A stretch of DNA of 64,000 nucleotides. Origin: a virus (taxonomy: Duplodnaviria > Caudoviricetes). The notes under the pieces were generated by a model. The model saw nothing but the letters and a program-made list of their open reading frames with translations. It ran no database searches and was not told where the DNA came from. The stretch is taken from IMG/VR virus record IMGVR_UViG_3300035208_005856, positions 1-64,000 of that record; one strand, given 5' to 3'. Both the position numbers and the translations under genes were made by a program. Of the stretch, positions 33,201 through 52,120 are shown in pieces (position 1 is the first letter of the stretch; every line of letters starts with the position of its first letter).

Positions 33201-36200
33201 GCTCCGGCCATAGACATGTACCCACTGGCTTCTGCTCCCAGTCCTTGACCTGATAATTCTAGGTCTTGTCTTTTACGTTCATATTTCGTAGCGACTTTTA
33301 TTTCTTGGGACTTGGTTTCAGTAGCAACGCCCTTGAGGAATGACCTAATATTTGAGAATACATCAATTCCCACACTAGTGGCCTCGTTAACTATCATGGC
33401 CAATTCTTGATCCTTGGCTATAATATCTTTATACCCTAAGACCGTAGAATTTAAATCATTTTGAAGTGAGGTTATATACTGATCTATACCCTTAGTATCT
33501 TGTCCTCCTCTTTTTAGACTTTGACTCAGGAGTTTATAGTCCTCTATTCTCTTGCTTTGATCTGTAACTACTTCTTTTAAGTCCTTAAATATTTCCTGTT
33601 CTGCCGCCGTAAGTTCTCTGCCGGAATCCAATGCCGCTTTGTCCATGGCCTTGAACGAATCGGTGGTAGCATCTATAGTCTGAGTTAAATACCCTTGGGC
33701 CTCATCTATTTTAGCCCTAAGTTTTTTTACTCTCTCGGAACTAGTTCCGGGAGTGTTCATTTCCTGTGTCCATGTATTTATATTATTTTTAGCACCTTGT
33801 ATATCTTCTGGGGTCTGGTATTTTAGTGCCTTTAGTTTATTACTCTGCTCTTGTAATTTGATAGTTTCTGCGAGGATGGATTCTTTGTCTGCTCCAGGTT
33901 GATAGAATTTTGTTTTTAGTTTTGTTACAGCCTCATTGTTTTGTGCTATAATTCCAGCCGGACCAATACCTGCGGCATAATTTTCGGCCTCTACCCTTGC
34001 CATGGCCCTTAGATTTTCTATTTTTTTCTTTTCCAGCGGCAGTCTATCTACGGCCAATTTTGTAACTTTTAATTCTTCATCAAGCGCCTTATTCTCTTGA
34101 GCCAAGGTATCTCTTTTAGCTGATAATACTTGTGTGCTTGTGTTATTAATGGCCGCTTGTTTGTCAGCAATTTCTTTTTCCAAATCAACTTTTTCTAGAG
34201 CAAAGGTATCTTGCTGTAATATGGCTGCTTTTAATTTATCAGCAATTTTTTTAGTGTAGTTAGATGCATTTTGGTATCCAGTTTGGGTATTAAGATTTAC
34301 ATTTTTTGGTTCTTCTATTCCCAATTTTTGCCCTAAATTCATTTTTTCAATAACAGGCAAGCCATAAGCTGACTTACCGGATTTAATTAGAGAAGATAAA
34401 CTTTCGTATGCGTTTTTAGTATCATCTGGAGACAATCCACCCGCTGTTGTTTTTAATTGGTTATTTACTGACTTTAATTTTTCCTGTGAGTCTTTAACTT
34501 GCTGAGTCCATAATCCCATACTAGACCCAGCATCTTCTATGGCCTCTTTCATTTTTTGTGCGGCTACCGTGGGTGTATATTGAGCAAAAACCTCTTCTAC
34601 TTGCTTAGTAAGGGACAATACCTCATCGCCCAAAAGAGTCCCATATCTACTTGTTATATAGCTAAGTTCTTGTTCTGCTTGACTAGATGTAAATTCGTAT
34701 TGTGCTTTAAGATTCTGATCCTTGGCTCCAAGTGCTGCCGATGCGTTGGTTTCTTTTACTTCCGTTAAGTCTTTTACTATTTGATCATAATCTTTTTTAT
34801 ATTTTGCCATATCCGTAACAGCTATTTCGGCCTTTGACTTTTTAAGAAGAGGTTCAAATTCGGCAACGGCCTTTGATTTAATAGCATTTACATCAGAAGA
34901 CGAAGCACTTGCAGTACTTGAATCTAAATTATTTTTAGCCTTGTCCATCTCCCGATTCCATGCTACAAAGGCTATTGTAAATCCAATAAGAGCCGTAGCT
35001 GCTAATGACAATACCGATGCTGTTCCTGTTAATAACAAGAGCCACTTGGATTGAGCAACTATTGTTGCCTCTGTAGCAACAACAGATTCGGCCCTAACCG
35101 CAGTTAACTTGGCTTCTTCTTGTTCCATTACCACCATGGCAGCTATTCCTAAGTCAATAATTTTTGTCAATCTTCCTAATATAATCTCTGCGTTACTTAT
35201 GACAATCATAATGTTTTTTACTATCATTATACCAGCTAGAGCCGGAATAAGTGCTTTAATGGCTACGGTAATTTTATCTATATTGTCCAGAAGCGGCCTA
35301 ATCCCTTTATCAATTAAAAAGGCAAAGAAATTTGCAGCGTCTTTAATTAGTCCAATTGTTTCTTTGAATTTACCGCTTTCAATTCCGTCACTTACGGACT
35401 TAAGCATGTCCAAAAATGATTTGTGAATACCTGAAAATAATTCAGGACTCATTTCTAGCCACTTAGTACTAAGTTTACGAATCATACCACTTACTGTTTT
35501 GCTTACAGCCTCTTCACCTGCTGCCTCAAAACCTTTTGTTCTGTTTAATACATCTTCAGTAAATGCCTCTGGACCTTTCCCCATTAACCCCTTTAGTTGT
35601 GCGCTACTAGTTATACCACTAGCCTGTACTATTTGAGCCCTGTTTAATGGCGATTGCCCCAAAAGGGCCCTTAATTCAGATTGTGCCTGAAAACCTGCCA
35701 TGGTGGGAAACATTTGTTCGGCGGCCTTGGTGTATCTTGCTATAATCTTAGTACTTTGCTCTTCGCTAAATCCTTTTGTTAGGAACAGGGGCATTAATGC
35801 CGTTGCTGTTTCTTGGAGGGTACTAAAATTAATATTCATTCTAACACTTATCGCCAATAACTCTTTCATGAATCCATGACTACGTTTAAGACTGTCATTA
35901 AACGACTCAACGTATATGTTATTAAACGCACCAGCCTGCGCTATTTCAAGGTTTTTTAATTTGTCTATAGTGTCTATGAAAATTGATTTAAAATTATGTA
36001 AAGCACTTCCGGCAATAAACCACCAGCCTATAGCCGATGCCATCATAGTATTTAATCTTGATAATTGACCATATAGGTTAGTAGATCTCAGAGTTGCTTC
36101 TTCAAAGGATCTGGACAATGCCGCATTTATACGTGTTAAGTTAACAGACGCAGGGTTTATTTGCATTAACTTAGACCGTATGCCCTCAAGCCCTTCTCTC

Positions 36201-38143
36201 ATCTTGGCGGCTTTTGGAATAGCATCAGTATAGTCAGGTCCTTGTACTCCTTGAACGTCTCTTATCTTTTTACTGGCTATTACCATTTGGTTATAGTCTC
36301 TAAGTTGAGCACTTGCTTGTTTGTCTAATTCAGAGGCATTAGATATAGGTTTTGCCGCCGATGCCCCAAGGGGTTTCATTAACATGGTTTCTGCCTTAGT
36401 AGCTTCTGCTGACCATGCATTTATTTGCTTTAATTCTGATATAACAACTTGCAACCTTTCGGATACGGCAGTTGCAGAGGCTTTTACTCCACTTAATGCT
36501 TGTGGGTTGTTAGCATACATATTTGCCTGTTTGTTCAATTCTGTGTAAAATCCAGACAAGGCCCTTATTTCTTCTTTTAGTCTTTTTGTAGGATCTATAC
36601 CCAAAGCTAATCGCTGGGTATCCGATATCATTCTATCAATACCAAGTGGATCACCCTTGACTCCCATTGAAGCCAAACTGGCTTTTAGCTCTTTTATCTT
36701 GGCTTCGGACTGTGACAGTTTTGCCATGTTCGCAACCCATTCCTGGGTATTCTTTGTTAAATTCCGGGTCTCTGAGACTAGTGCTAAATAATCCTCTTTC
36801 ATTGTACCCAGTAGGGCTTTGTTTTGCTTAAGTTTTTCGGTATCGTCGTAAGCAGTTAATTCCCGGCCCGATGCCATATTAGCTCTAGTCAATGCCTGAC
36901 CTGCTCTATCCGAAAGAATAGGACCTCCAGTAGCCTTAATTTTTTCAAGTTCTACTGCCAGTTCTTTTATTTTAGATTTTTGTGCATCTATTTTAGATAT
37001 ATCTACGCCAGCCGCACCTTTCTCGTATCCTGTATTAAGAGTATTAAGATATGATGTAGCGGCCGCAACCTCTTTTATTTTGGTTGTTAGCCTTTCGTTT
37101 GCGTTCTCTTCTCTCTTGGTCTCTGCCGTTAATTTTTCTAGCTTCAGAGTAAGCCCCTGTGCTACTTTTTCATAAGTAGTGGTTCCGTCCATAAGCGTTT
37201 TTTTTGCAAGATTAGTACTGAGAAGTGTATTGCGATATTTTTCAAATCTATTTTTCGTATCTTCTGTTATACGACCTTCGTCCTTTATCTCGTCTTTTGC
37301 GGTTTTGTAGGTAGCGGTGAGTAAATTAACTTCATTAGCTATACCCCTTAAGGTATTAGTCTGAACCTTAGCTGATGCATTTTGTTCTTTATTGGCCGCA
37401 GCCATTTGCCTAGCAGCTATAGCCGGATCTGATATATATTCACTAGCGGTAGTCGTTTTTGTCATAATAGACTTAGCGGCATTAGCTAAACCTCTATCAG
37501 GACCGGCATCGCCTTTCATTGTATTAAGCATTACAGCTTTAAGCTTATTTAAATCCGATATAGTACCTTGTATTTCTTTCCTTGTTGTCTCAAAAGCTCT
37601 TGATCCAGTTGGCTGAGTCTTTAGTAATGCCATGGTCTGAGATAAATTTTCTTTAAGTTTATTACTTTGTGTTATTAAATCTCTATTATCTCTGGCAACA
37701 TCATTCATTGCCTTACTTATAGTAGCGGCTGCACGAGAGAGTGTTTCGGAATAATGAGTAGCGTTTCCACCTTTCTCTTCAACGGACAACTCTTTTACTT
37801 TTTTTATAAGAGTCTTGACCCCAGTGGTTGTTAATTCTACCGCTTCATTAGCTGTTTTAAGATCCACCACCCATGACTTAGCCATCCTACTTCCAGAGGC
37901 CATCAAAGATTGTTTACTGACTAAAGCACTTTCAAGTCTGTTAGTCCATGATTTAAGTAGGTCGTTAGCTTTTTGTAGCTCTGATTTTGCTTCCTTGGTA
38001 TCTACTTCTAAGTGCAACTTAGTAGCTGATCCCAGCTTGGTATTTAGCTCAGCTAACTTGGCTTCTAATTGTTTTATTGTATCAAAGGCCTTACTGGCAT
38101 CAAAAAACAGTTCCTTCTTAAATTGATCAGTCACTTCCCGCAC
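30260..38143 (-). CDS. Tape measure protein (2627 aa)
   Basis: Very long Ala/Lys/Glu helical protein, central hydrophobic segments, C-terminal FASGISYVPEDMIANIHEGERVL typical of TMPs. Confidence 0.9.
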   Translation of the reverse strand: MREVTDQFKKELFFDASKAFDTIKQLEAKLAELNTKLGSATKLHLEVDTKEAKSELQKANDLLKSWTNRLESALVSKQSLMASGSRMAKSWVVDLKTANEAVELTTTGVKTLIKKVKELSVEEKGGNATHYSETLSRAAATISKAMNDVARDNRDLITQSNKLKENLSQTMALLKTQPTGSRAFETTRKEIQGTISDLNKLKAVMLNTMKGDAGPDRGLANAAKSIMTKTTTASEYISDPAIAARQMAAANKEQNASAKVQTNTLRGIANEVNLLTATYKTAKDEIKDEGRITEDTKNRFEKYRNTLLSTNLAKKTLMDGTTTYEKVAQGLTLKLEKLTAETKREENANERLTTKIKEVAAATSYLNTLNTGYEKGAAGVDISKIDAQKSKIKELAVELEKIKATGGPILSDRAGQALTRANMASGRELTAYDDTEKLKQNKALLGTMKEDYLALVSETRNLTKNTQEWVANMAKLSQSEAKIKELKASLASMGVKGDPLGIDRMISDTQRLALGIDPTKRLKEEIRALSGFYTELNKQANMYANNPQALSGVKASATAVSERLQVVISELKQINAWSAEATKAETMLMKPLGASAAKPISNASELDKQASAQLRDYNQMVIASKKIRDVQGVQGPDYTDAIPKAAKMREGLEGIRSKLMQINPASVNLTRINAALSRSFEEATLRSTNLYGQLSRLNTMMASAIGWWFIAGSALHNFKSIFIDTIDKLKNLEIAQAGAFNNIYVESFNDSLKRSHGFMKELLAISVRMNINFSTLQETATALMPLFLTKGFSEEQSTKIIARYTKAAEQMFPTMAGFQAQSELRALLGQSPLNRAQIVQASGITSSAQLKGLMGKGPEAFTEDVLNRTKGFEAAGEEAVSKTVSGMIRKLSTKWLEMSPELFSGIHKSFLDMLKSVSDGIESGKFKETIGLIKDAANFFAFLIDKGIRPLLDNIDKITVAIKALIPALAGIMIVKNIMIVISNAEIILGRLTKIIDLGIAAMVVMEQEEAKLTAVRAESVVATEATIVAQSKWLLLLTGTASVLSLAATALIGFTIAFVAWNREMDKAKNNLDSSTASASSSDVNAIKSKAVAEFEPLLKKSKAEIAVTDMAKYKKDYDQIVKDLTEVKETNASAALGAKDQNLKAQYEFTSSQAEQELSYITSRYGTLLGDEVLSLTKQVEEVFAQYTPTVAAQKMKEAIEDAGSSMGLWTQQVKDSQEKLKSVNNQLKTTAGGLSPDDTKNAYESLSSLIKSGKSAYGLPVIEKMNLGQKLGIEEPKNVNLNTQTGYQNASNYTKKIADKLKAAILQQDTFALEKVDLEKEIADKQAAINNTSTQVLSAKRDTLAQENKALDEELKVTKLAVDRLPLEKKKIENLRAMARVEAENYAAGIGPAGIIAQNNEAVTKLKTKFYQPGADKESILAETIKLQEQSNKLKALKYQTPEDIQGAKNNINTWTQEMNTPGTSSERVKKLRAKIDEAQGYLTQTIDATTDSFKAMDKAALDSGRELTAAEQEIFKDLKEVVTDQSKRIEDYKLLSQSLKRGGQDTKGIDQYITSLQNDLNSTVLGYKDIIAKDQELAMIVNEATSVGIDVFSNIRSFLKGVATETKSQEIKVATKYERKRQDLELSGQGLGAEASGYMSMAGAQLSGEEQAAKRSVYQKNTTTASGLLTGALQEINTVPKSSARAKQLSSEIERLSKVYEENQNKVDACNKAIEQSAVDYQKAAKSVDDMQDSLALANSQFERQLQLAEKQHGAEMKLSALGMAQTDIQQGVAMGRISSSEAFGSNLDIEKEQLGVNTQMGLDQVNADTESKLADQQQLYDKAYAAEMDMYDKYGEDLTDAQQLQLEGILAAQESAQEKMSQITAEGEQKQNAIIENAGQQELSIRQKLNNEVEAVQARNLAKLEEYSKTSRTQSFTTSSDMGGGGALAMVQNYSLQVAAGIATAMDPVTKMAQEITNRLMNPVANVSNPSLLDNSQATKNVNQMIYNQQQNVASGQEAGGGYSYETQLKIAQMKLATAQNDFQEKMIKPFTATLGEFSASLSEVRSIAGLDAIVKSLTSLKNNFSRLQALADAYGISLDDLKTQIDDFVKAIDEKRKEIEANLKAVVRQINLEIKGLTLPTLEARSGYSTGLSMVSDIKDLLEQGVDQKLIQKLLKARSQNLIDETNKSLQEIADKISKGYENNRGELVSLEAGLGIDIQKVIDETKKSLDSIRSTYNDAALDIINKDRDVATIRPEEDRRRQLMKLAQKQAKEETEVAKDADDSIAKYKNEYTRNIDDLHKQSNNYLTTLAAALKAMAEEVSAYIKGFVAPKLPTITAVNGSTGLASTESPATNLGAPAQSFGGVPFASSPATVSPVLESTPGSLSSSSYSSGGSGGREGGYLGEEDSGESGDEGDGGGGSGDGGGGGGSPTDTYVGDGIWYNSQTGQYHDTAGHRVANPNSSAAPEKTTEEDTKDNGGGKTDKSGYWEKIAEDYNFYKKNGYSRSGSLPGGSLSSIVEGGIENGSLEPDPSNPKKVRPKQRKPSQDVNPSENGSFLPPKTGGSFASGISYVPEDMIANIHEGERVLTKEENKRFDKMAGMVNKNFNFDLNFNGGDLTNADLFKIFKAIMQDYNRKKNQA

Positions 38144-38158: not shown

Positions 38159-38644
38159 CTATTTTCTTTTCCAACCGGCTTCTATAAACGCATTGTTTGT
38201 CAACTCTTCTAACATACTATTATAACATTTTTCAAGTATTGGTTCTAGTTCTTTGTCTAATTCTATATTTGCGGTACTCCACCATGCTCTTGTAGGGTCC
38301 CCATAGTCTCTGCCTGGGCCTGGATAGTCAGCATCTTGAGACCTATGAATTGTAGTACTATCTAGAGCTCTGCCTATTTCAAGAATATGGCTTAAAACAA
38401 TAGAGTTAATATACCTATCTTCTTCGTTAGCATACGGATTATTATCCACTTTCTCAGAATAATCAAGAATCTGATTAGTTACTCCCACTATAGTTGAATT
38501 ATCTTTTTTGTATGCGGCAATAGAATTTTGTAGCGCACGAGTATCAACAGGAACATAGCCTTTAAACATCTCTACAGCTATGTTCTGAGCCAGGTCCAAA
38601 AATGTTTTTTGCCACTTATTATAAATCTGCTGGGATGTTGTCAT
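38159..38644 (-). CDS. HK97 gp10-like tail/neck component
   Basis: YVPVDTRALQNSI motif (PVDTG.L..SI). Confidence 0.6.
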   Translation of the reverse strand: MTTSQQIYNKWQKTFLDLAQNIAVEMFKGYVPVDTRALQNSIAAYKKDNSTIVGVTNQILDYSEKVDNNPYANEEDRYINSIVLSHILEIGRALDSTTIHRSQDADYPGPGRDYGDPTRAWWSTANIELDKELEPILEKCYNSMLEELTNNAFIEAGWKRK

Positions 38645-39488
38645 TGGCTAATAACTCCTTTAACGGCCTGTATTTAAACGGAAGGTAGCTTCCGGTATTT
38701 GTTTTATAAAATTTTGTGCCTTGGAATTGTTTTTGGAATTTATCTAAAATACTTTCGTCACTAATTTTTTGACCGGAAAATTTGTTACGGCCTGTTACTA
38801 TTTCGGCATTTACCCAATTTTTAGTTGTCGTGCACAATACTGTTTCATAAAAGTGATTGGCTATCATAGGATCTAAGTCTATTGCCAATGTATTTATAGA
38901 CTTGGCCTTAGCCATACACGCTAAGTGGATGGCGGCTATGGCTATTGTTCTCCAGTAATAGAGATAGCCATTAAACTCGGTATCAAAATGTCCTTTTTTA
39001 TAATCAGCAAAATTTGTATTAGGATCTACTTTTTCACCTTCCCACCTAAAGACATGGGTTATTTTATCAAGCAACCAACTATTTTGGCTATCCTGTTCCA
39101 GCCTGGCTATTGTCTTATTTATTGTCATAATATATTTCGACTTAGAAACTAAAGGCACACATACGTCAGCCCCCTGATCACCCCATAATGCTATATCAGA
39201 TGGAAAAAAACATGGAAATAAATTAAGGCCTATTGTTACGATGTTATCGTTTTTAAAACCGTAGTCTCTATACATTTGTTCGTACCTAATATGATCTTCT
39301 TCTGATATAGTTATAGAATGATCCAGTATCTTATTCCTTTCTGGATTCATTTTTAAGGCCGTTTTACTAACAGGCTCATCATACTCGCCGTCAAAAAAAA
39401 TGTCATTAACAACAGGGCTACAGCCTATAACAATAACATCTTTACCCTCTAATAACTCCAGTACATCATCAAAATTATTTTTTTGCAT
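38619..39488 (-). CDS. Maf/DUF115-like (CstII-fold) glycosyltransferase
   Basis: GKDVIVIGCSP, TIGLN, AAIHLACMAKAKSINTLAIDL, HFYE. Confidence 0.6.
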   Translation of the reverse strand: MQKNNFDDVLELLEGKDVIVIGCSPVVNDIFFDGEYDEPVSKTALKMNPERNKILDHSITISEEDHIRYEQMYRDYGFKNDNIVTIGLNLFPCFFPSDIALWGDQGADVCVPLVSKSKYIMTINKTIARLEQDSQNSWLLDKITHVFRWEGEKVDPNTNFADYKKGHFDTEFNGYLYYWRTIAIAAIHLACMAKAKSINTLAIDLDPMIANHFYETVLCTTTKNWVNAEIVTGRNKFSGQKISDESILDKFQKQFQGTKFYKTNTGSYLPFKYRPLKELLANDNIPADL

Positions 39489-40056
39489 TCTGTCTTCTCT
39501 CCCATGCCATTTTTATTGGATGCTCTTTTTCGTCTTCTTCTACTTTTTGACTAACCTCATAAACCTCTTCTGGTTTTAAGTAAGGTAATGAACTTTTTAT
39601 CATCCCTTCAGTCAAGTACTTAAAGAAATTCTCATAGTGAGATACGCAGTATCTCACTATGTTAGCATTGTTTGTGGCGTTATTCTTATCGCCTTCCCAT
39701 CCGCATTCATGCCAAGCGCTAAAAATAGCGTGTCTATTTCTTTCTAGTTTCTTGGCCTCGAATTCATCGTAATCATCAGCCTTGTAAATTGTGTCCAAAG
39801 TGTTTTCAAGATAGCCAACGACCTCTAAGAAATTCTTCTTATCAGGAGTGCCATTGAAGCCAGATACACAAGCAAAGTACAAATACTGAGCCTTTTCTTT
39901 TTCCAGGTTCTTTATGGCCAATAACTTATTTTCAAGCATCTTAGGAGTATAGGAGTTAATGAGTTTCTGGTAGTCTATTGCCATGCCGTTAGCCGACAAT
40001 AGTACTAAGCTCTCGTTTAAATTTCTGGCATCAACCCTGACGAACCTTTCAGGTTC
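39475..40056 (-). CDS. Tail assembly chaperone T segment (reached by -1 frameshift)
   Basis: The -1 frame is open from the slippery site (KKEPERFVRVDARNLNESLVLLSANGM...) to the stop at 39475. Confidence 0.7.
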   Translation of the reverse strand, partial: EPERFVRVDARNLNESLVLLSANGMAIDYQKLINSYTPKMLENKLLAIKNLEKEKAQYLYFACVSGFNGTPDKKNFLEVVGYLENTLDTIYKADDYDEFEAKKLERNRHAIFSAWHECGWEGDKNNATNNANIVRYCVSHYENFFKYLTEGMIKSSLPYLKPEEVYEVSQKVEEDEKEHPIKMAWERRQNAKK

Positions 40057-40655
40057 TTTTTTTTTACAAGTTTTAGAACTGTATCCATGATACAGTTCTG
40101 TTCAATTACGGTATTAAACGCATTACACCATTGCATCCAGGTGGCTGTTTTTTCGGCTAATGCCACGCTGCTTTCAATAGCCTCAATTAATCGAAGTCTT
40201 TTTCTGAGATCGTGTCTTAGAAGGAATCCTAATACTATTCTTTTTATCTTAACAAATAAGGAACAAAAACCCATCCCCTGTTCTAGTACTTGGCTTAGCT
40301 TATAGATCTTATTATTAATCTCAAACAAGGCTGTTATTTTATTGTATGTCTTCTCGTCAACACAGCTCAAAATAAAAGATTGAAGATTGATGTTATATTT
40401 TTCAAGAGCATTCCACGAAATAAGCATTTCGCTAAACAGAAGCTCTGAGTTATTAGCATCTAGATATAATTGAATTTCATCTTCGCCCTTATCTCCCAGA
40501 TAAGATAGAATAGGAGACAGTAGCATATCATATTGTTTAAGACTCAGGGCATGACTTTCATAACTACCCAGCCCAAGAGTTATTAATCTTGGACTTCTTA
40601 ACTCCACATCCTGTTCGGTTTTATCCGATTTTAAAGCCAACCCTTTGTTTTTCAT
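40017..40655 (-). CDS. Tail assembly chaperone G
   Basis: Ends with in-frame A-AAA-AAG shortly before its stop; lies upstream of the TMP. Confidence 0.7.
   Translation of the reverse strand: MKNKGLALKSDKTEQDVELRSPRLITLGLGSYESHALSLKQYDMLLSPILSYLGDKGEDEIQLYLDANNSELLFSEMLISWNALEKYNINLQSFILSCVDEKTYNKITALFEINNKIYKLSQVLEQGMGFCSLFVKIKRIVLGFLLRHDLRKRLRLIEAIESSVALAEKTATWMQWCNAFNTVIEQNCIMDTVLKLVKKKNLKGSSGLMPEI
40056..40062 (-). other. -1 programmed ribosomal frameshift heptamer A_AAA_AAG
   Basis: GTA AAA AAA AAG AAC in the G frame; the -1 frame joins the downstream ORF without a stop. Confidence 0.75.
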
Positions 40656-40685
40656 TTTGCACCCTATTATTTACCCTGTAGTTAT

Positions 40686-40714
40686 ATTATACAAAATTTA
40701 ATACAGTTATTCAA
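40686..40714 (-). promoter_or_regulatory. Sigma70-type promoter for the chaperone-TMP operon
   Basis: TTGAAT-17 nt-TATAAT, 30 nt upstream of ATG 40655. Confidence 0.65.
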
Positions 40715-40887
40715 CTATTTATTTAAATCTTTGCTCAGTACTTTTATTATTTCTTCCACTAAATTAGTCTTTGGCGTTTTGTTCCCTTTCTTGTTATCTT
40801 GTAACTTCATAATATAAATAGCTACCCACAGTAATAGAGGGACCATCCCTAAAAACACTATAAAAACAGTAGCTAACTCCCAATAAA

Positions 40888-41280
40888 TCATTCCCCATCT
40901 CCAATGTCTACAACCACAACACGCTTGCCTTCCTTCTTTGCTATATCCACAGCATTTTTAGTTCCCGAACTAACTCCGTCCCAGAATGCTATCATAAAAT
41001 CACAGTCGCCCACTATCTGTCTATTCCTTATCATACCCGCCGGATTTTTCTTACTGGGGTCAGTGGATTTATAGCCTTCCCATTTTGCATAGTGAATAGT
41101 TATTGACAATTGTTTTTCCCGGGCGTATCTTTCAACTAAGTTACCAGCCCCGGAGGCAAAGCCACCTGATATTATATGCCATGGCCCTTGGTTATTTTCT
41201 TTTTCTAGTACCATATCGAGTTCATGCTTAAACTCAGGATAATAATTATAATTCCGGCTACCAACCACTGCTACTTTCAT
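40888..41280 (-). CDS. YspA/SLOG-family (DUF2493) protein
   Basis: VAVVGSR, IISGG..SGA, AGMIRNRQIV, AFWDGVSSGT. Confidence 0.85.
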   Translation of the reverse strand: MKVAVVGSRNYNYYPEFKHELDMVLEKENNQGPWHIISGGFASGAGNLVERYAREKQLSITIHYAKWEGYKSTDPSKKNPAGMIRNRQIVGDCDFMIAFWDGVSSGTKNAVDIAKKEGKRVVVVDIGDGE

Positions 41281-41927
41281 TGCCCTAAATCTCCTCTATG
41301 TCCCAGACTCCAAATTTTTCTCTAAGTTCTTTAACCAACTTTGGTGTAAATTTTATTCCCTTTGAGGTAATTACTATATAATTATTTTGAGTCAAGTACG
41401 CTAATAATAGGTCTGTTATGTCATGGGCTATTCCCAAATCTTTTTGTACCTTATCCTTAAATTCTAGTGCATTTGAGTTATATTCCCCTTCAGTTAATTT
41501 GTATAGACCTTTATTTATTCCGTTAAGTAGCGAGACTAACAGTTTTTCGTATTTATTTAAGTTCATTATCTTGGCACTCCTTTAGCTTCTAAAGAAACTA
41601 CTAAAACCTTTCACTATCTTCCCAAGGAGAGACTTGTCTTTAGCAACTATACCGGCCCTAGCTTGCATTTGAGTCTCAGGTTGTGGCTTAATGCTTTCGT
41701 ATTTGTAACACCAGTTATCAAAATAATATACTTTGTCATCCAACCGGCATTTACCATCCAGCCCCTCTTTGTCAAAATAATTATTACAGGTAGTACACAT
41801 ATAGGGTTCTAGGGCACTAACATAAGGCCTGTCTCTTGATCCACCTGGATAATTTGCCTTTCCGGTTCTATTCTTATAATCTTGGTGGTACCCTGCTTCT
41901 CTATATACCATAATGTCTTCTCCTTTG

Positions 41928-42746
41928 TTATTTAGCGTAACAGTATATACATGAATGTTGACAAGTTCCGTATTCTCCAATATCTACAGTCTTTACACAA
42001 CCACATTCTTTCCTGCTTGTTGACTTTGAGAATTCAAATGGCTTACCTATTAGTTTAGTAATTAACTCAGGGTCTATGCAATGAGCTTTCTTAATCAGTT
42101 CGTCACCATAGGCGTTAAATCGAATGCTGTCTTCGCAACATGCCGATACCTCAATACCATATTCTTTAGCAATATCAGACAAGTCGCAAGCTACTTTTTT
42201 CTGAACCTCTAGGTAGTCATATACCTCTATCCCAGCGTCTTTAAATGCGTTTTTGGTTTTATTATACATATCCACAAAAGAAATAGTGCATTGGGTTATT
42301 GCTCCGTCGCCCAATATACAAAGTTGGTCTGCTATAAAATCAAAGTGATTAACATGCCATTCGGGGGTAAATTCCTTGGTGATTATAATAGGATCGTATC
42401 TCCATATTATTGGAATATTACTGTTATGCATTGTTATGTCATAAACCTGACGGACTGATTCCATTACATCTGGAACGTTAGGCTCAATAGAAAAGGGATA
42501 GCCGTTAATTGTAAATTGAAAATAATATTTAATGCCATAACTATCCAATATATGCAGTTTTGGAATCAAATGTTCGTAGTTTTTAGACCAAAAAACAATA
42601 CAATCAATATCGTCCCTCTTTATACTGTACCTGTTTTTAGTATAGGGATTGGTATATTCCAAATTCCCAGCCTCTAACTGTCTTAAAAATTTTCTATGGT
42701 GAAAGGCCGGAATATCAGTTCTCATACTCGCTGATATTATTGTCAT
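41928..42746 (-). CDS. DUF1848 family radical-SAM-related protein
   Basis: IISASMRTDIPAF, VFWSKN, WRYDPI, CGC...DIG.Y.TCQHSCIYCYA. Confidence 0.88.
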   Translation of the reverse strand: MTIISASMRTDIPAFHHRKFLRQLEAGNLEYTNPYTKNRYSIKRDDIDCIVFWSKNYEHLIPKLHILDSYGIKYYFQFTINGYPFSIEPNVPDVMESVRQVYDITMHNSNIPIIWRYDPIIITKEFTPEWHVNHFDFIADQLCILGDGAITQCTISFVDMYNKTKNAFKDAGIEVYDYLEVQKKVACDLSDIAKEYGIEVSACCEDSIRFNAYGDELIKKAHCIDPELITKLIGKPFEFSKSTSRKECGCVKTVDIGEYGTCQHSCIYCYAK

Positions 42747-42943
42747 CTTATGATTTCTCCTTGGTTTTAAATAATTTTTTACAAAAATCGGTTCTTAAAA
42801 TACTATAATCCTTATCGTAGCATAAATGTGAATTATTCAATGCGCATTTATATGATTTCAATTTTTTGCATTTAGAGATGCTACAATGGTTTTCGTCTTC
42901 CACTACTACTCTGTTTTTAAATTCTACGCCTACCATTTAATTA

Positions 42944-43672
42944 TTATTCCTCCAATGCTTTATATTGTATTATCTTAATATCAAAACTATCATCATATAA
43001 CCTATCCCCAAATTCTCTCCTAAATAGGGGTTCAAGAATATTTTCACTAGATTCATGATCACATGCCGTAAACGTGAGATAGAAATTAATACCTGACCTT
43101 AAAATAACATCTATGTTTCTAAGGATATCATCTGTATCAAAATTATCCACTCCGGTATTGTCTCTCCATTCCCTTTTACTAAGGCCCTTTATGTTAACAG
43201 CATAGAGTGCATTATTACGTTCTAATCGTGATAGTTCGTCAATTTTATAACGCCCTTCGACAAGAATAAAATCAGAATGAAAAACGAAATTAGATGGCAA
43301 TTTGTTCAATATCTTATGCCAATATCTGACGTATAGAGCAGGAGCTCCTCCCATTAGGTGAAATACTTCTTGGCCGGAATTCTTAAAAGAAGAGATTAAT
43401 TGATCGGTATCTAAATAATGCGGGATTCTATGAACCCCGCCTGGAGTAACATAACAATAAGGACATGCCAATGGACATCCGTTCAACTGGACCACAAATT
43501 GATTAGACACTTCTTTCCCTAGTCTTTTAAGGCATATTTCTGAAAATTTATCATATCCGCCACCGGCCGTTTTTGTGTTACATTTTCTAAACAGACCTCC
43601 TTCTAATAGATCATCTTTTTTAATATCTCTGCTCTGCTTCATGCAAATAAAATTTACAGGCCACGTTGTCAT
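42944..43672 (-). CDS. Radical SAM protein
   Basis: CPLACPYC (CxxxCxxC) and FHLMGGAP. Confidence 0.75.
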   Translation of the reverse strand: MTTWPVNFICMKQSRDIKKDDLLEGGLFRKCNTKTAGGGYDKFSEICLKRLGKEVSNQFVVQLNGCPLACPYCYVTPGGVHRIPHYLDTDQLISSFKNSGQEVFHLMGGAPALYVRYWHKILNKLPSNFVFHSDFILVEGRYKIDELSRLERNNALYAVNIKGLSKREWRDNTGVDNFDTDDILRNIDVILRSGINFYLTFTACDHESSENILEPLFRREFGDRLYDDSFDIKIIQYKALEE

Positions 43673-44512
43673 CTATAACTCCTCCTCTAATTCTTTTTTA
43701 TGAGCATTATAATACTTTGCTCCTAGTACATAAATAAATCCTCTCTCGATGACATAATACCAATTAGTTCCATCTTCGCCATGGTAGTTACGGTCTACGT
43801 CCATGAACCCGTGAGTTACTAACTCCTCTAACAACGGAGAGCTAGAGTTATAACATTTATTTCTATAAGGATCTTTACATTTAGAGCTACCAAAAAGAGC
43901 ATGGTGTAATTTTTTATATGCTTCGTCTGTTAACACAGTCTTAGCCTCGTCTTTAAAGATATTTACTGTCTTTGTTTCTTCTGTTAACATACTATTTTCT
44001 CCTTCATCATGGTAATATCTTTATTTATTTTTTGATACAAAGTTAAATTAAATTCATTATTATCTAATGCCGTTTCATTAATAGCATCCAAAACCTCAAG
44101 CGTTTTTAGAATATTATTGTCTACTTTGCCAATATCATACATACAATAAGCTGCTAATTCCCATTTTGGATACATATCAAATAATTGTTTTGCCGAGAAA
44201 TAAGCACTTAGTACACAAAATATATCATCATTACTGAGTTCATCAATAGCATTATTTAAATTGCCTTTGGAATAACCATACTTTTCGTAAATATCTATCA
44301 GTTCATAAAAATAATATTTATTTAAAGGCATTGTCTTTTGGGATTGCCACTTACCGTTGTCTATTTCTAAAAAGATTTTCATAAAAAAGTAAAGAAACAG
44401 CCAAGAAATAGTTACGTTTTTTATTTGGCAAAAAACTTTAGGCATGGAATCTAATCTTGATACTACCCTTAATAAATCAATTTCCGAGAATTGAGTAATT
44501 CCTAATCTACGA

Positions 44513-45043
44513 CTAGTCACTATCTCCTCCCCCTTCGTCCTTAAATAGTATATCATCGTTATGGTTCTTTATGAACCACTGGAAGGTATCAATGCGTTTT
44601 TCTTTAACCAACCACAAAAGACCTTTTTGTCTGCAACAAATTAAGTGCAATATATCGTATACGTATCTGTTATAAAAATCGCTGCCATTTAATAACTTAA
44701 AGTCCATCTTGTCAAACATGTAGTGTGCAATGCCTGCGCTTCTAGAAAATCCAGCCTCACAGTTTATATATACATGTTCATTATTTATTTTTGCGGTATA
44801 AATAACATCTAGAACCTTTTCTCCCATCTCAAAATCAAATAACTTGAAATTATATTTTGTCAGATCCTTATGCATGTGAAAATAATCAATGTCATCAAAC
44901 TCAAGTTTAAGGATCTTAGATTGGTTCCATGCAGGATGATAAATAAACGGCTCAGCCTTTGGACTTTTAATAGAAATAAGCGGAGCATCAAAACCGTTTT
45001 CGGTTATAAACTCTTGCGGGTGGTAACTAACTGTTAATGCCAT
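44513..45043 (-). CDS. Predicted protein-tyrosine/dual-specificity phosphatase
   Basis: CX5R loop INCEAGFSRSAG; LEFDDI; N.YVY. Confidence 0.8.
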   Translation of the reverse strand: MALTVSYHPQEFITENGFDAPLISIKSPKAEPFIYHPAWNQSKILKLEFDDIDYFHMHKDLTKYNFKLFDFEMGEKVLDVIYTAKINNEHVYINCEAGFSRSAGIAHYMFDKMDFKLLNGSDFYNRYVYDILHLICCRQKGLLWLVKEKRIDTFQWFIKNHNDDILFKDEGGGDSD

Positions 45044-45463
45044 TATTTATTTCCTCCCATAGTTTATCAACACATTTTTGCTCCTCAGCCATTTGAATAA
45101 TTTTATTAAGAATATCAATATGCTTTAAATCTTTATCCTCTTCTTCTCTTAGTGATAATTTTAAAATAATAGCTTCTCGCTTTACATAAGGAAGCATCAT
45201 AAAGCCATAAGCTAATGATTTAAAGTTAACCATTTATTTAAATATCCTCCTGGTTTTCTATTTCAATTCTAATAGCATTAACTTTAAGAGAGTCCTTAAA
45301 TATTACTTTTGGATATTTACAGTTATCGCAACATCTAACATCTCTAATACAATCTACGCAACATAAATATGCGTATTTATCAAAGTCTTTAAGCTTTACC
45401 ACTGCCTCTGGGTATTTATCAATTAATGACAACAAGTCCTTAACTAACATTTTCTAATTTCCC

Positions 45464-46864
45464 TTAACATTTGTGTGCAAAGATAGTAACTACATTGCCA
45501 TGGGCCGGAGGGGATATCTTAGTAGTATCCATTAACCTAAGTAGGTTTTCTTCAGTCTCATGTCGTGTGCCATAAAATGGGTGCTCGACTTTTTCTACTT
45601 CAAAACCGTAATCCTCAAGCATATTACATAGTCCTTGTGTCCCAAACAACGAAACATGTGTCTTGTCATGTAACAACCTAAACTTATCACCAAATCTTTT
45701 AGCCGTAATACTCTCAAAGTCTGGAGTTGTTATAATCAACTTCCCTCCTATTTTAAGTAAATTATTTATTTTTTGGATATATACTACCGGATCTGGCAAG
45801 TGCTCTATAACATGATACATATTAATTGCCTCAAAAGACATATCAGGATAGGGGCTTTCTAGCAGGCATCCAATATGGATGTTCCCGTATTCTCTTGCCT
45901 TCTCTCCTGCATATTCAGATAACTCAGTCCCGTATTTTAGCCACTTACCATTAATAGCACTTAGGATATATCCAAATCCACAACCTACGCTAAGAACAGC
46001 ACCGGGCTCTTGGGTATTTATATAGTCAATAACGTGCTTAGCGTCTTCTAAATACTGCCATTTCTCTCTCTCTTTATTACGTTCTTTGCCATCAGGATCT
46101 ATTGTCTTGCCCCAGTAATTATCTTCGTAGTTAATAACCCCTGCCGGAATTCTTTTCCTAAAATAATTACCAGATTCTTTTCTCTCTCTCTTTTTAAGTA
46201 ATATACTAGCAAGTTCGAGATCAGCAAGGGAATCAATGTCTAATGCATCCTCTTTGGGGATAAGGATATAACCATATCCTCTTCCTAACCTATTATCTAA
46301 TCTGTTATCATTTATAAACAAAGATTCTCTTGTCATTACCCATCCGTTTCCACATTCTCTTATGGCGGGGGTAGAATCCTGTCTGCGTGGCCGGTCAATT
46401 ATTTCTTGGGTATTAATATAAAAACCAAAATCTTCTGTCGTCATACAACATGAATCAACTTCTTCTGTTAATACTTTTTCAATAGCCTTATCAATATACT
46501 CGGTTCTATTCAAAGGACTAGTGGCTTGTAGAAAAACTATTATATCAATTATAATTCTTAATGAGTTTTCATATACGCTGCAAACTGTCTTTAGTGCAGC
46601 CTCAGATCTAGCATAATCATCAGACTCACTAGAATGACGCCATACAACACTAAGTCTGCTTTGGTCAGGATAGTTATGTACAACATCAGCTATTAGATCG
46701 CAGTCAGTAGATACCACAACTTCTGATATGTACTTAGATTTAAGTGCGGCATCAATCTGGTAATAAATAAGAGGCCGGCCATTAACCAATCTAATATTCT
46801 TTTTATAAATACCCTTACTTCCGCCTCTTGCTGGAATTATTGCTACAATTTTTTTGTCTTGCAT
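45464..46864 (-). CDS. NeuA-type acylneuraminate cytidylyltransferase fused to class I SAM methyltransferase
   Basis: N-terminal IPARGGSKGI.KKN...PLI, VSTD, LQATSP, DID...D; C-terminal VGCGFG, HVIEHLPDP, GGKLIITTP. Confidence 0.88.
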   Translation of the reverse strand: MQDKKIVAIIPARGGSKGIYKKNIRLVNGRPLIYYQIDAALKSKYISEVVVSTDCDLIADVVHNYPDQSRLSVVWRHSSESDDYARSEAALKTVCSVYENSLRIIIDIIVFLQATSPLNRTEYIDKAIEKVLTEEVDSCCMTTEDFGFYINTQEIIDRPRRQDSTPAIRECGNGWVMTRESLFINDNRLDNRLGRGYGYILIPKEDALDIDSLADLELASILLKKRERKESGNYFRKRIPAGVINYEDNYWGKTIDPDGKERNKEREKWQYLEDAKHVIDYINTQEPGAVLSVGCGFGYILSAINGKWLKYGTELSEYAGEKAREYGNIHIGCLLESPYPDMSFEAINMYHVIEHLPDPVVYIQKINNLLKIGGKLIITTPDFESITAKRFGDKFRLLHDKTHVSLFGTQGLCNMLEDYGFEVEKVEHPFYGTRHETEENLLRLMDTTKISPPAHGNVVTIFAHKC

Positions 46865-47677
46865 CTAACTACCCCTATTTCTTCTTTCTCTTTCCACTGC
46901 TTCTTCAAATCCTCTTAGCCAAGCAAATACACCTGCGTCTGTCTCCGTGTAAAACCATGGCATAGTATCGCCAATAGTTATAGTCCTGAGTATAACTTCT
47001 TTACCGCCTACGTCTCTTCTTGCTCCATGCACCTTTGGTCTTTTGCCTATTAGTTTTTCTATAGCATCAAGCTTTGACCGTATCTTTTCTTCATATCCCA
47101 TTAATGTCAACCTCGTAATTCCTAATTAGTCTATCCCTGTCACTCTCCATGTTCTTTATAGCCTCTTGAAGTTTGAGGTCTATCGCTGATTTCATGAGTT
47201 TACATAAGGGATCGTAGTGCAAACGAATTAAATTATGTAGCTCATCTCCAAAAGGACCGAGATTTTTTATTGTACAATCAATACAACCCTTCTCTTCTAC
47301 TTGTCCTTGGAAAAATTTTAGCATGAAAATATTAGGCTCAAAAAAAGGATGATCATCTACTCTCTTTAATTTATCCTTCAGGAACTCAACCTGAGACTTC
47401 CAATACTTATAGCTTGCAATTAGATCATCACCCAACTTGACATAGGCCCTTGCTTGTTCTAGTTTATTTTTTGCCATGTTATTTACTCCTGAATGATAAC
47501 TAAAGCTTTTATCTCGTCTTCTAACTGTTTAATATTGTTTTCAGCGTCAAGTATTAATTGATTGAGTTCTTTTCTTTTGTTTTTATTAATTTCCAACTTC
47601 CTTTGTTGGTCTCCTATTCTATCCTTTAAGCTATTAATCCTATAAAGATCATCAACCTTAAAAAGTTCTGTTGGCAT

Positions 47678-48130
47678 CTAGCTACCTCTTCCTGTCATTA
47701 TATTGTCTTTTATACAGGCGTCTAACACCCCGGGATCTAATGTACAATTCTTATCCAGTTGATAAGTCTTATTTGTTCTGTTATCTGTGCACTGTCCTCT
47801 TTTTTCGTTATAGGTTCTTATCTTATCACCCAGAGGGACTGTTTGTTCTCGAAAATGGATTTTGGCCTTGTCAGAATAGTATTTAGTTAGTCTCAAGCTC
47901 ATTTCTTTCACAGCCTTTTCGGCATTCTGGATTATAGACCTTTCGTCATGAATACTTACCATTATTTTTGATTCCCTGTGATATAACCTTACCCCGTTCA
48001 GGTGCCTATTAACATTCTGGCCACCTTTTCCGTTACTAAAAAATGATTTTTCTATTTTAAGACTATAGGCAAATGTCTCATCCTTTTTGTGAAGAGATTC
48101 TAACCAATCCTTAAATGACATTTTTGCCAA
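47678..48130 (-). CDS. Truncated peptide chain release factor-like protein (GGQ domain)
   Basis: GKGGQNVNR...VRLYH...ERS..QN...A and KIRTYN...TD.R; no PxT/SPF domain. Confidence 0.85.
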   Translation of the reverse strand: MAKMSFKDWLESLHKKDETFAYSLKIEKSFFSNGKGGQNVNRHLNGVRLYHRESKIMVSIHDERSIIQNAEKAVKEMSLRLTKYYSDKAKIHFREQTVPLGDKIRTYNEKRGQCTDNRTNKTYQLDKNCTLDPGVLDACIKDNIMTGRGS

Positions 48131-48890
48131 AGCTCACTTCCTCCCCTGGAAATTCTCTAAACCTGAACATATCTGGTATTATCTTAAAAACAGAGTCCTT
48201 TAAAAACAAGGGAATATCATATAACCTGATACCAGATATAAGTTCGTCAATAGCCTCTCTGATGGCTATAGCATTATAATCGTCTTTCTTCAGACCCTTT
48301 AACGTTCCTATAATAGCCCAGTCAATACAAAGTTTAAGTATCTTTTCGTCATCTTCACTAAAAGCTAACCGCTCAAGGATGGGCTCAAAACTCACAAACT
48401 TAGTTTTACACTTGACCCGTGATAGTATATGCATCCGATCAAGATCTTCAGTCTTTGTTATTGTGACACCTGTCCAACAATTGTCAGGGAAGACATAATC
48501 TAACATACCCTTCGGGTTTTTGGTGAGCAAAATAAAAGTATGCTGTGGATATTTTTTACAATAATCTAAAACCATTTTCCTAACTTTGTCAGCAGGGTAA
48601 TAAGCTTCTCCTTCTATATCCTCTGACCATAATCTCCACTGCCAGTCTCCAAAAACGTCTGCCATGGAGCCTAGGAATATTTTACAAGGTTTTTTTGGTG
48701 GTTTCTTGCTGAACTTGTCTAACCACAAAGTAGGCTCATATCCCCACGGATATATTCCACTTAGTCTTGTTTCTGATAGGTCGAACCCGTAGCAATAAGA
48801 GCATCGGTGCTCGCAGCCCGTTACCGGATTAAAAGTATATCCCTGTTCTCCATTTGGACCCATGGTCCATTCAATACCTGTCTTGTTCAT
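48111..48890 (-). CDS. DUF5131 (phage Gp37/Gp68) radical-SAM-like protein
   Basis: TGIEWT, FNPVTGCEHRCSYCY, SMADVF, LLTKNP, FVSFEP. Confidence 0.88.
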   Translation of the reverse strand: MNKTGIEWTMGPNGEQGYTFNPVTGCEHRCSYCYGFDLSETRLSGIYPWGYEPTLWLDKFSKKPPKKPCKIFLGSMADVFGDWQWRLWSEDIEGEAYYPADKVRKMVLDYCKKYPQHTFILLTKNPKGMLDYVFPDNCWTGVTITKTEDLDRMHILSRVKCKTKFVSFEPILERLAFSEDDEKILKLCIDWAIIGTLKGLKKDDYNAIAIREAIDELISGIRLYDIPLFLKDSVFKIIPDMFRFREFPGEEVSFGKNVI

Positions 48891-51868: not shown

Positions 51869-51898
51869 TTGTAATACTTTGGGGGTATATGCTATAGT
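51869..51898 (+). promoter_or_regulatory. Antisense sigma70 promoter
   Basis: TTGTAA-18 nt-TATAGT with TGn extension, in a non-coding gap of the - arm. Confidence 0.6.
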
Positions 51899-51904
51899 AA
51901 AAGA

Positions 51905-52062: not shown

Positions 52063-52083
52063 ATTTGGCGAAAAAAGAGCAAC

Positions 52084-52120
52084 AAAAAAAGCGGTAGTCA
52101 CCTATGTTATAGACTACCGC
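52084..52120 (-). terminator. Intrinsic terminator after tail tube gene
   Basis: GCGGTAGTC/GACTACCGC 9-bp stem followed by T7 on the - strand. Confidence 0.8.

Follow-up and report, generated by a model that had tools for sequence, protein, structure and literature searches.

What is a gene that resembles bacterial sialic acid-type transferases doing in the middle of a phage tail operon, and where would its sugar go? The question is raised by the first 64,000 nucleotides (here "the window") of the 117-kb genome of an uncultured phage, in which a first-pass annotation had read two genes on the same strand, one Maf-like and one a fusion of a NeuA-type synthetase to a methyltransferase, as a possible system for glycosylating the virion.

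A small Maf-like protein

The first of these genes (38619-39488, minus strand) encodes P0001, a stand-alone protein of 289 aa. It had been called Maf/DUF115-like, and the resemblance holds at the level of the fold, although P0001 itself gives zero Pfam or PHROG matches, even at E 10, and falls below the 34.6-bit cut-off of the curated PF01973 model (DUF115, Maf/MptE-like). A search of 1.84 billion representatives yielded only 10 homologues; the family is 235-305 aa in length, its members lie on contigs of at most 19 kb, and 3 of the 10 match PF01973 weakly (best E 0.0065). The AlphaFold model (pLDDT 78, pTM 0.84) predicts a Rossmann-like MptE/sialyltransferase fold in the central domain. Its best structural match is the Magnetospirillum Maf (5mu5; Z 11.6, 194 residues, rmsd 3.9), with MptE (8sd5) at Z 10.9, CstII/Cst-I (1ro7, 1ro8, 2p2v) at Z 8.1-9.2 over 157-188 residues, GT29 at about Z 7, and the next at Z 5.4 and 3.8. 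Foldseek puts MptE and CstII on top (probabilities 0.99-1.0). When the P0001 family profile was aligned with six true Mafs, hhalign gave a probability of 83.5% (E 8e-6, 99 columns), and the alignment spans the core nucleotide-binding motif, RT..GAIHLAALAKAK.I.I.GVDLDP.

P0001 is nevertheless not a typical member of the Maf flagellin O-glycosyltransferases (PF01973 core; Maf/PseD/PseE of Campylobacter and Aeromonas). It is under half their size (true Mafs are about 600-680 aa, and 604-668 aa in genomes G001 and G005), the N- and C-terminal helical domains of a full-length Maf are absent, and its motif is G-[TC]-S-P where Mafs have G-P-S. If the likeness extends to function, its donor would be expected to be a CMP-nonulosonic acid, and it would work in the cytoplasm, modifying Ser/Thr of a protein destined to polymerise into a filament or tube. 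Mafs, in contrast, belong to flagellar glycosylation islands and P0001 to a phage tail operon; by context alone, flagellin cannot be its acceptor.

The CstII and Cst-I enzymes of Campylobacter jejuni (CAZy GT42) resemble P0001 in their size, their single domain, and an N-terminal loop of the G-x-S-P / G-P-S type. In GT42 enzymes a catalytic His and Tyr surround the CMP phosphate. CstII works at the membrane, where it sialylates lipo-oligosaccharide, and carries a segment for membrane association at its C-terminus, whereas no such segment was found in P0001. The CST-I model (PF06002, GT42) matched nothing in the genome, a comparison that is uninformative, as the control likewise matched nowhere. 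The structure list also shows that the MptE fold houses pyrophosphokinases (MptE, thiamin pyrophosphokinase) and SteA, so the fold alone does not prove glycosyl transfer, and we describe P0001 as a putative transferase for a CMP-activated nonulosonic acid.

A conserved place in the tail module

Does the gene truly belong to the tail operon? In the list of open reading frames (ORFs), it shares 14 nt with the gene upstream and 26 nt with the gene downstream, so the overlaps reported earlier with a tail-chaperone ORF and a gp10-like gene are real. All the tail genes described here lie on the minus strand. The upstream neighbour is a T-like ORF (39475-39999, 174 aa), the 3' end of which runs into the Maf-like start; it lies in the -1 frame of a G-like tail assembly chaperone gene (40017-40655, 212 aa) that contains an A9 slippery run at 40057-40065. 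The downstream neighbour, whose start overlaps the Maf-like stop, would encode an HK97 gp10-like tail/neck component (38159-38644, 161 aa), and it is followed by the gene for a 2627-aa tape-measure-like protein (30260-38143). This is a lambda-type G/GT arrangement, with two ORFs upstream of the tape measure and a predicted -1 slippery site between them. A tail tube-like protein (312 aa) is encoded at 52139-53077.

A distant relative, locus L007 (28-34% protein identity), keeps the tail tube, G, T, and Maf-like genes in this sequence, with the tube homologue directly upstream of G. The tube protein is 34% identical to L007:1-915 over its full length (E 4e-50) and is also identified in the ESM Atlas by Phage_TTP_17 (0.90) and by major-tail-protein structure rows. 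The G-like protein is 31% identical to L007:1001-1606 (E 3e-21) and the T-like protein 28% identical to L007:1630-2139 (E 2e-18). The A9 run occurs at matching phase and position in both the window and L007, each with an open -1 ORF behind it, which bears out the chaperone assignment. The gp10-like protein, for which a search of 5.8 billion proteins returned no homologue, keeps its earlier name as a lead from the ESM Atlas, in which its clusters are all viral by features (0.94-0.96) and the structure row points to the HK97 gp10 family (TM 0.59-0.60). The tape-measure-like protein has neither a Pfam nor a PHROG match, and its identity is therefore based on composition and position: it is rich in A, L, K, S, and E, has no Cys, and carries hydrophobic segments at residues 957-1064 and a Gly-rich tail. 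Its residues 2353-2382 form the richest Ser/Thr stretch of the proteome (47% S/T, the best 30-aa window and top of 179 ORFs).

The promoter that had been postulated at 40686-40714, a sigma-70-like sequence (TTGAAT-17-TATAAT, 10/12, minus strand), is indeed present as a match in the 232-bp gap upstream of the G-like gene (40656-40887), the only sizeable gap, but promoter-like matches are no more common than in shuffled sequence (38 found vs 38.2 expected). Judged by its conserved order, the Maf-like gene is a conserved gene of the tail module, which makes the case for operon membership stronger than when it was first proposed.

Where would the sugar come from?

The fusion gene at 45464-46864 (minus strand) was correctly read and is intact. 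Its product, P0002 (466 aa), joins a NeuA-type CMP-sugar synthetase (residues ~5-225; CTP_transf_3, PF02348, 85.5 bits with a cut-off of 22.6) to a class I SAM methyltransferase (residues ~279-430; Methyltransf_23, 63.6 bits, and Methyltransf_11 too). The PseF model aligns with residues 7-223 (model positions 1-220 of 222), NeuA/CSS entries of the PDB match at E 1e-12, and the fusion is common to 522 homologues. P0002 lies below the NCBIfam equivalog cut-offs, a score above which would settle the sugar, for PseF (92.7 vs 205.7 bits) and for the KdsB models (25-47 vs 155-281). The full cytidylyltransferase domain is present with its P-loop-like PxRxxSKG..KN and acidic DxD site; P0002 retains PARGGSKG..KN, acidic D211 and D215, and GCGxG, and across 19 homologues P11, R13, S16, K22, N23, and D211 do not vary and D215 hardly does.

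The first-pass annotation found no NeuB or NeuC, which is true of the window. In the genome as a whole, no NeuC was found, but a short NeuB of 296 aa is encoded at 69712-70602. Its NeuB domain (PF03102) is complete (profile positions 1-241 of 241, 240 bits), and the NeuB_NnaB model aligns over positions 1-278 of 329 at 244 bits. As the C-terminal SAF domain is absent and the score lies under the cut-off of 399.65, this protein is a member of the family and not an equivalog. A second methyltransferase gene lies beside it, and a GmhA-like sugar-phosphate isomerase (E 5e-39) is encoded at 106045-106632. The phage therefore need not activate a host nonulosonate, as had been supposed; because its genome holds NeuB, the second methyltransferase, and the isomerase, it probably synthesises its own sialic acid-like sugar.

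The nearest bacterial counterparts are SIS(GmhA-like)/NeuB/HAD/NeuA-MTase/radical-SAM clusters (L008-L058). They contain the same fusion at 40-56% identity, a SAF-less NeuB, and extra methyltransferases. In a tblastn comparison of all 179 phage ORFs with 51 bacterial NeuA-MTase loci, only NeuB (38 loci) and the GmhA-like isomerase (9 loci) were returned, the phage NeuB being up to 66% identical, in the L008 copy. The bacterial genes are clustered, whereas the phage pathway and transferase genes are dispersed at 38.6, 45.5, 69.7, and 106 kb, a span of 68 kb. The bacterial clusters also hold a HAD phosphatase, GT1/GT2, and B12 or SPASM radical-SAM proteins, which the phage lacks or has in non-homologous versions: neither HAD Hydrolase_3 nor GT2, the only other transferase family looked for, was found in the genome. 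Within that scope P0001 has no competitor as the transferase, while the missing HAD phosphatase counts against the route proposed below. Its place might conceivably be taken by a Cys-phosphatase-like protein of 176 aa (44513-45043, minus strand), a candidate sugar-phosphate phosphatase, which has a CX5R motif (C95-R101, CEAGFSR), a phrog_5614 match, and a DSPc match below the cut-off (E 2.3e-5).

The pairing of sugar pathway and transferase is also seen in other phages. In one complete 66.5-kb record (G007), a gpJ-like gene precedes, in this order, GT2, MTase, B12-rSAM, MptE-like, rSAM, NeuA-MTase, and NeuB genes, and the MptE-like gene passes PF01973 (48 bits, cut-off 34.6). PF01973 (MptE-like) matches occur in 25 of 47 NeuB-carrying viral records, at a median distance of 3.25 kb from NeuB compared with 19.7 kb under random placement; 11 are no more than 1 kb away. 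Relatives of NeuB are present on at least 567 IMG/VR contigs, and in Caulobacter phage CcrColossus, the sialyltransferase-like gp126 adjoins tail proteins. The link between the sugar pathway and an MptE-like transferase is thus general across phages. Of the three outcomes that the first-pass annotation had named as refuting its reading, two did not arise: the model of P0001 does have the Maf/MptE/CstII fold, and transferase and pathway are found together in other phages.

Where would the sugar go?

We propose the following route. The GmhA-like isomerase, the short SAF-less NeuB, and perhaps the CX5R phosphatase would build a sialic acid-like sugar (nonulosonic or related ulosonic), which the NeuA domain of the fusion would activate with CTP and which the fused methyltransferase, the one beside NeuB, or both would methylate. 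P0001, expressed from the tail operon along with the G/GT chaperones, the gp10-like protein, and the tape measure, would then move the CMP-sugar to Ser/Thr of a tail protein in the cytoplasm, during tail assembly. As acceptor, the Ser/Thr-rich C-terminal region of the tape measure is no more than a candidate. A sugar coat on part of the tail is the likeliest reading, because the phage appears to make and activate its own sugar and an enzyme of Maf-like fold is conserved in its tail-assembly operon; for the whole route, ending on a tail protein, we would put the chances at a little short of even.

The choice of the virion over a host structure follows gene position. Freeman and colleagues are said to have reported in 2023 that mycobacteriophage glycosyltransferase genes lie in the structural operon beside the modified capsid and tail tube proteins. 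By that logic a tail protein would be the acceptor here too, where the predicted glycosyltransferase gene has such a position, conserved in L007. The mycobacteriophages use ordinary GT-A/GT-B enzymes and host nucleotide sugars, in contrast to the sialyltransferase fold and phage-made CMP-ulosonic acid predicted here, and a place in a structural operon does not by itself identify the acceptor.

The same chemistry could be directed at host flagellin, pilin, S-layer, LPS, or capsule, so that the surface of the infected cell is remodelled, serving superinfection exclusion, avoidance of progeny trapping, or an auxiliary metabolic function, with the tail operon only setting late timing. Phage NeuA/NeuB/NeuC clusters, such as those of Lake Biwa viral genomes (10.1101/655167), are by convention read in this way, as is cyanophage KdsA/KdsB (PMC12801897); these phages likewise encode enzymes that make a keto-deoxy sugar acid and activate it in CMP form, and the two papers take the genes to modify the host surface and name no transferase. 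The present phage differs in having a Maf-like transferase in a conserved tail module and NeuA fused to a methyltransferase. Flagellin is the target of true Mafs, and 5 Maf paralogues are encoded in G001, the closest bacterial genome of the donor type, but P0001 lacks the domains that flank the catalytic core of true Mafs, as well as a membrane-association segment. Those flanking domains have a role in flagellin binding. The clusters of G007 and CcrColossus close the tail module, a region in which accessory genes collect as well, and the serine recombinase in the phage genome makes a temperate lifestyle possible; on the other hand, a host-conversion moron is not usually retained, as the Maf-like gene is, within the order tube, G, T, (gene), tape measure at about 30% protein identity. 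We regard a host acceptor as rather unlikely, though worth keeping in mind.

P0001 could also be no glycosyltransferase at all, but an MptE-fold nucleotide-binding protein with some other role, for instance as a pyrophosphokinase or as a tail assembly factor without catalytic activity, with NeuB, NeuA-MTase, and GmhA forming an unrelated auxiliary pathway for host glycans. Its fold is common to MptE (a kinase), thiamin pyrophosphokinase, and SteA, and several points count against transfer: the failed PF01973 model, the short length without Maf domains, the departure from G-P-S, and pathway genes that are scattered and do not adjoin P0001. Yet the top fold match is Maf, followed by four sialyltransferase families, MptE-like genes adjoin NeuB in many phages, and FolE, PTPS/QueD, and DHPS were not found in the genome, which leaves a pterin kinase without a pathway. 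We judge this reading improbable. Still more so, to the point of being very hard to credit, is a sugar placed on phage nucleic acid as a glycosylated base. NeuA-MTase is flanked by radical-SAM (42944-43672), DUF1848, DUF5131, and SLOG genes, which might form with it one DNA/RNA-modification block, and phage glycosyltransferases reportedly hypermodify DNA (Pyle and colleagues, 2024). These neighbours, however, have no homologue in 51 bacterial or 15 viral NeuA-MTase loci, the transferase gene is in the tail operon and away from the replication genes, and we know of no DNA glycosyltransferase with a sialyltransferase fold.

What it would mean for phage tails

We return, then, to decoration of the tail. 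In its most specific form, which we offer tentatively as a possibility that falls somewhat short of an even chance, a minimal single-domain Maf-type enzyme would be encoded by a core tail-morphogenesis gene of a phage lineage and would O-glycosylate a tail protein with a phage-made, methylated sialic acid-like sugar, one candidate acceptor being the Ser/Thr-rich C-terminal region of the tape measure, which enters the host. Our literature search found no paper on decoration of a phage tail by a phage-made sialic acid-like sugar, and such a coat on the tail would probably be new for phages. If true, it would be the tail's version of a decoration of phage particles with nonulosonic acids that is widespread and as yet undescribed.

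Genome and Tail Operon

The genome of this phage is a complete viral record of 116,749 bp with direct terminal repeats, of which the window represents the first 64 kb. Its large terminase is 21-25% identical to its best matches, and megablast with the 38-47 kb region found nothing in 50,697 phage records, so we consider the phage distant from every cultured phage. Similarly, IMG/VR scans with the NeuA-methyltransferase fusion (P0002), the family of the Maf-like protein (P0001), and the terminase as queries did not find a close relative.

On the minus strand the head module (terminase, portal) starts near 64 kb and extends to a tail-tube-like gene (52139-53077). A block of about 22 small genes (52.1-40.9 kb) separates the tail tube from a 232-bp gap, after which a tight operon on the same strand encodes proteins of 212 aa (40017-40655), 174 aa (39475-39999), 289 aa (P0001, 38619-39488), 161 aa (38159-38644), and 2627 aa (30260-38143); a DnaG primase gene lies beyond the last of these. 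The 161-aa protein resembles HK97 gp10 (ESM Atlas, at lead level), and the 2627-aa protein is tape-measure-like in composition, being rich in A/L/K/S/E and cysteine-free, with hydrophobic segments centrally and a Gly-rich tail. Just past the end of the window (genome positions 64880-65557, L003:880-1557) the phage encodes a serine recombinase of 225 aa (Resolvase domain, E 3.5e-35), which is compatible with a lytic as well as a temperate lifestyle. P0001 and the genome's other 289-aa ORF (66074-66943) are not paralogues.

L007, a 2.4-kb metagenome contig of a distant relative, carries a homologue of the tail tube (34% identity, E 4e-50) and, directly 3' of it, homologues of the 212-aa (31%) and 174-aa (28%) proteins, followed by the beginning of a homologue of P0001. 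The 174-aa ORF and its counterpart in L007 lie in the -1 frame of the ORF before them; the overlap of each pair is open and includes an A9 run in identical phase, an arrangement which, judged on sequence, is the signature of G/GT tail assembly chaperones. Taken with the gene order of L007, this gives tube, G, T, and Maf-like gene as the order of the lineage. The first-pass annotation had placed a Maf-like gene in the tail operon next to a tail-chaperone ORF; the placement is real and conserved, and the chaperone assignment holds in the window and in L007 alike. The promoter that it had proposed for this operon (40686-40714) fares less well, as the site is present, but shuffled sequence yields matches of this kind just as often.

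In L007 the tube and G genes are just 85 bp apart, and for this reason the 11.2 kb (40888-52138, ~22 genes) that separate them in our phage look inserted into the tail module. This block encodes the NeuA-methyltransferase fusion, radical SAM, DUF1848, DUF5131, RF-1 domain, and SLOG proteins, and a CX5R phosphatase; the fusion would then sit between tube and G by the chance of what looks like an insertion in this phage.

The Maf-Like Protein

P0001 has no family match of its own in Pfam or PHROGs, a PDB sequence-profile search with it found nothing, and tblastn against the 50,697 phage records gave no match. Only 10 homologues were found among 1.84 billion representatives, three of which touch PF01973 weakly. 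Two homologues, P0125 and P0127, are on contigs of 13 kb and 19 kb, respectively, and the one metagenome scanned for the family contributed two short contigs and nothing more. P0127 alone was seen to carry, directly after the N-terminal nucleotide-binding loop, a zinc-ribbon-like insertion of ~40 residues with a CxxC...CxxC pattern (alignment A1, columns ~40-82).

The AlphaFold2 model of P0001, built with an alignment of its homologues (pLDDT 78, pTM 0.84), has as its best Foldseek matches in the PDB archaeal MptE and the Campylobacter sialyltransferases CstII and Cst-I. The VIA second look ranked Maf 5mu5 at the top (Z 11.6), then MptE (10.9), CstII (9.2), SteA (8.9), and Pasteurella and GT29 sialyltransferases (8.3-6.7), after which scores drop to 5.4 and 3.8. 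In addition, a profile of the P0001 family aligned across the core motif with six genuine Maf proteins from two bacterial genomes (probability 83.5%, E 8e-6). The label "Maf/DUF115-like" can therefore be kept at the level of fold and superfamily, but not as membership, since P0001 fails the curated model; it is a cut-down, divergent form that lacks the Maf flanking domains. A CST-I model had no match in the genome, though its control also matched nowhere. P0001 is predicted from its model to work as Maf and CstII do, yet it falls outside the curated Maf family and probably outside the CST-I family as well.

The NeuA-Methyltransferase Fusion and a Probable Sugar Pathway

The proposed fusion of a NeuA-type synthetase to a methyltransferase is borne out: P0002 (45464-46864, minus strand) contains a full CTP_transf_3 cytidylyltransferase domain and a class I SAM methyltransferase domain. 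Over residues 7-223 the PseF model is matched along practically its whole length, with a score under the equivalog cut-off, and among solved structures CMP-sialic acid synthetases come nearest. In 19 homologues no variation was seen in the GCGxG SAM motif, in the nucleotide-binding motif, or in the acidic motif, apart from D215 of the latter, which is nearly invariant. Such fusions are common in bacteria (522 matches), where some are further fused to SIS, HAD, or CBS domains.

Other pathway genes are spread over the genome rather than clustered, at 23-68 kb from the fusion and outside the window. These are a NeuB without SAF domain (genome positions 69712-70602, L003:5712-6602; 240 bits), a second SAM methyltransferase that adjoins it (68683-69411, L003:4683-5411), and a GmhA-type phosphoheptose isomerase (106045-106632, L005:2045-2632; E 5e-39). 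A comparison of the full set of 179 phage ORFs with 51 bacterial loci holding the fusion returned NeuB in 38 loci and the isomerase ORF in nine; beyond the fusion itself and two scattered matches (one locus matched ORF 16826-17527, two the RF-1-domain ORF 47678-48130), no other ORF recurred. The closest bacterial NeuB belongs to an uncultured gammaproteobacterial MAG (G001), to whose NeuB and fusion the phage proteins are 66% and 52% identical.

The genome has no HAD phosphatase, GT2, or NeuC. It does have a CX5R phosphatase-like gene, which two small ORFs separate from the fusion. Isomerase and phosphatase together suggest that a sugar phosphate would serve as substrate, as in Kdn-9-P-type routes, in which case NeuC would not be needed; we infer this step as well as the nature of the methylation. 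Nothing supports a place in this pathway for the radical-SAM, DUF1848, and DUF5131 genes nearby, which have no homologues in bacterial or viral loci with the fusion and no sequence relatives in the PDB; non-homologous radical-SAM genes are nonetheless frequent in those clusters.

The bacterial loci (L008-L058) represent an uncharacterised cluster, recurrent in many phyla. Besides the fusion, which L017, L022, L038, and L050 carry as two adjoining genes, it contains a NeuB without SAF domain, a HAD phosphatase, an SIS protein of GmhA-like type, further methyltransferases, and radical-SAM enzymes of the B12 or SPASM kind. Among 131 neighbours from 14 loci, a Pfam count gave 16 methyltransferases, 11 radical SAM proteins, 10 NeuB, eight HAD phosphatases, seven GT1, and three SIS proteins. 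These clusters and their fusion suggest an unknown pathway to a methylated ulosonic acid. The MAG G001 also has five full-length Maf paralogues (L059, L062-L065), one of which (L065) adjoins a second NeuB-like gene.

Pathway and MptE/Maf-Like Genes in Other Phages

A second complete viral record, G007 (66.5 kb, terminal repeats), has an operon directly 3' of a gpJ-like tail tip gene that encodes, in order, a GT2, a TylF-type methyltransferase, a B12 radical SAM enzyme, a 253-aa MptE-like protein (48 bits, over the cut-off), a SPASM radical SAM enzyme, a NeuA-methyltransferase, and NeuB. Two further ORFs of this phage (L067:2875-3561 and G007 51399-51617) give weak partial MptE-like matches (E 0.0046 and 4e-4); one directly follows the gpJ-like gene, and both may be extra diverged paralogues.

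Phage-borne NeuB is frequent in metagenomes (L085-L164, IMG/VR) and nearly absent from deposited phage records, with two matches, both uncultured, among 50,697. The phage NeuB has relatives on at least 567 IMG/VR contigs, and we surveyed the 47 records on contigs of at least 30 kb among the best 80 of these. PF01973 was matched in 25 of the 47 (10 over the cut-off) and in four of the eight that are ≥90% complete, counts that refer to NeuB-bearing records only, some of them interrelated. Measured from NeuB, the median distance to the nearest match is 3.25 kb (11 within 1 kb), against 19.7 kb under random placement. Together with the G007 operon, these records show that the pathway and MptE/Maf-like genes are linked in phages. 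With an MptE-like gene near NeuB in about half of the larger contigs, the pairing is common in uncultured phages; it is uncharacterised, and the literature searched held no paper on it. BFVD likewise has many short MptE-like proteins from uncultured tailed phages.

Among cultured phages, the Caulobacter phage CcrColossus (L084, NC_019406.1) encodes gp126 (98832-99482; 216 aa), annotated as an alpha-2,3-sialyltransferase, which starts at the last base of the gene for the 1665-aa tail protein gp125. Downstream there are genes for a nucleotide-sugar transferase and a methyltransferase, as well as a GT9-like one. This protein is related to the MptE-like protein of G007; no relationship to the P0001 family is detectable. 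Being cultured, CcrColossus is suited to the related question of virion glycosylation.

What Might Be Glycosylated?

Our leading reading, to which we tentatively give a little less than an even chance, has the phage synthesize a sialic-acid-like sugar, activate it, and methylate it; P0001 would place this sugar on a tail protein as the tail assembles. The acceptor may be the tape-measure-like protein, encoded two genes downstream, whose Ser/Thr-rich C-terminal part is a candidate and nothing more: residues 2353-2382 form the top 30-aa Ser/Thr window of all 179 ORFs (47%). The surrounding region (~2330-2520) is Ser/Thr/Pro-rich, then Gly-rich and of low complexity, ahead of a conserved-looking C-terminal end.

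The customary reading of such phage genes in the literature is that the sugar modifies the host surface rather than the virion (10.1101/655167; PMC12801897). We hold this to be somewhat unlikely here, the main argument against it being the deep conservation of the Maf-like gene inside the tail module. That P0001 is no transferase at all is a doubtful proposition; kinases share its fold, but the linkage to NeuB and the lack of a pterin pathway weaken the case. An MptE-like kinase role in pterin or 7-deazaguanine synthesis was rejected, FolE, PTPS, and DHPS all being absent from the genome. Nucleic acid as the target of the sugar has no positive support, and we think it highly improbable.

Comparison and Significance

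Glycosylation of a tail protein by P0001 would follow the logic of mycobacteriophage virion glycosylation with another class of enzyme and another sugar. Earlier work has described phage NeuABC clusters as auxiliary genes (10.1101/655167). In the literature searched there was no report of a phage Maf-like transferase, nor of nonulosonic acids on virions. What sets this phage apart is that the gene has a conserved place in the tail operon, that the pathway is scattered, and that NeuA is fused to a methyltransferase.

The nonulosonic acids that bacteria carry on flagella, pili, and capsules control phage adsorption as well as autoagglutination and recognition by the immune system. A phage tail bearing such a sugar would be a new class of virion modification, with possible effects on receptor binding, protease resistance, and sticking to mucus or cells, and the recognition of therapeutic phages by antibodies could change as well.
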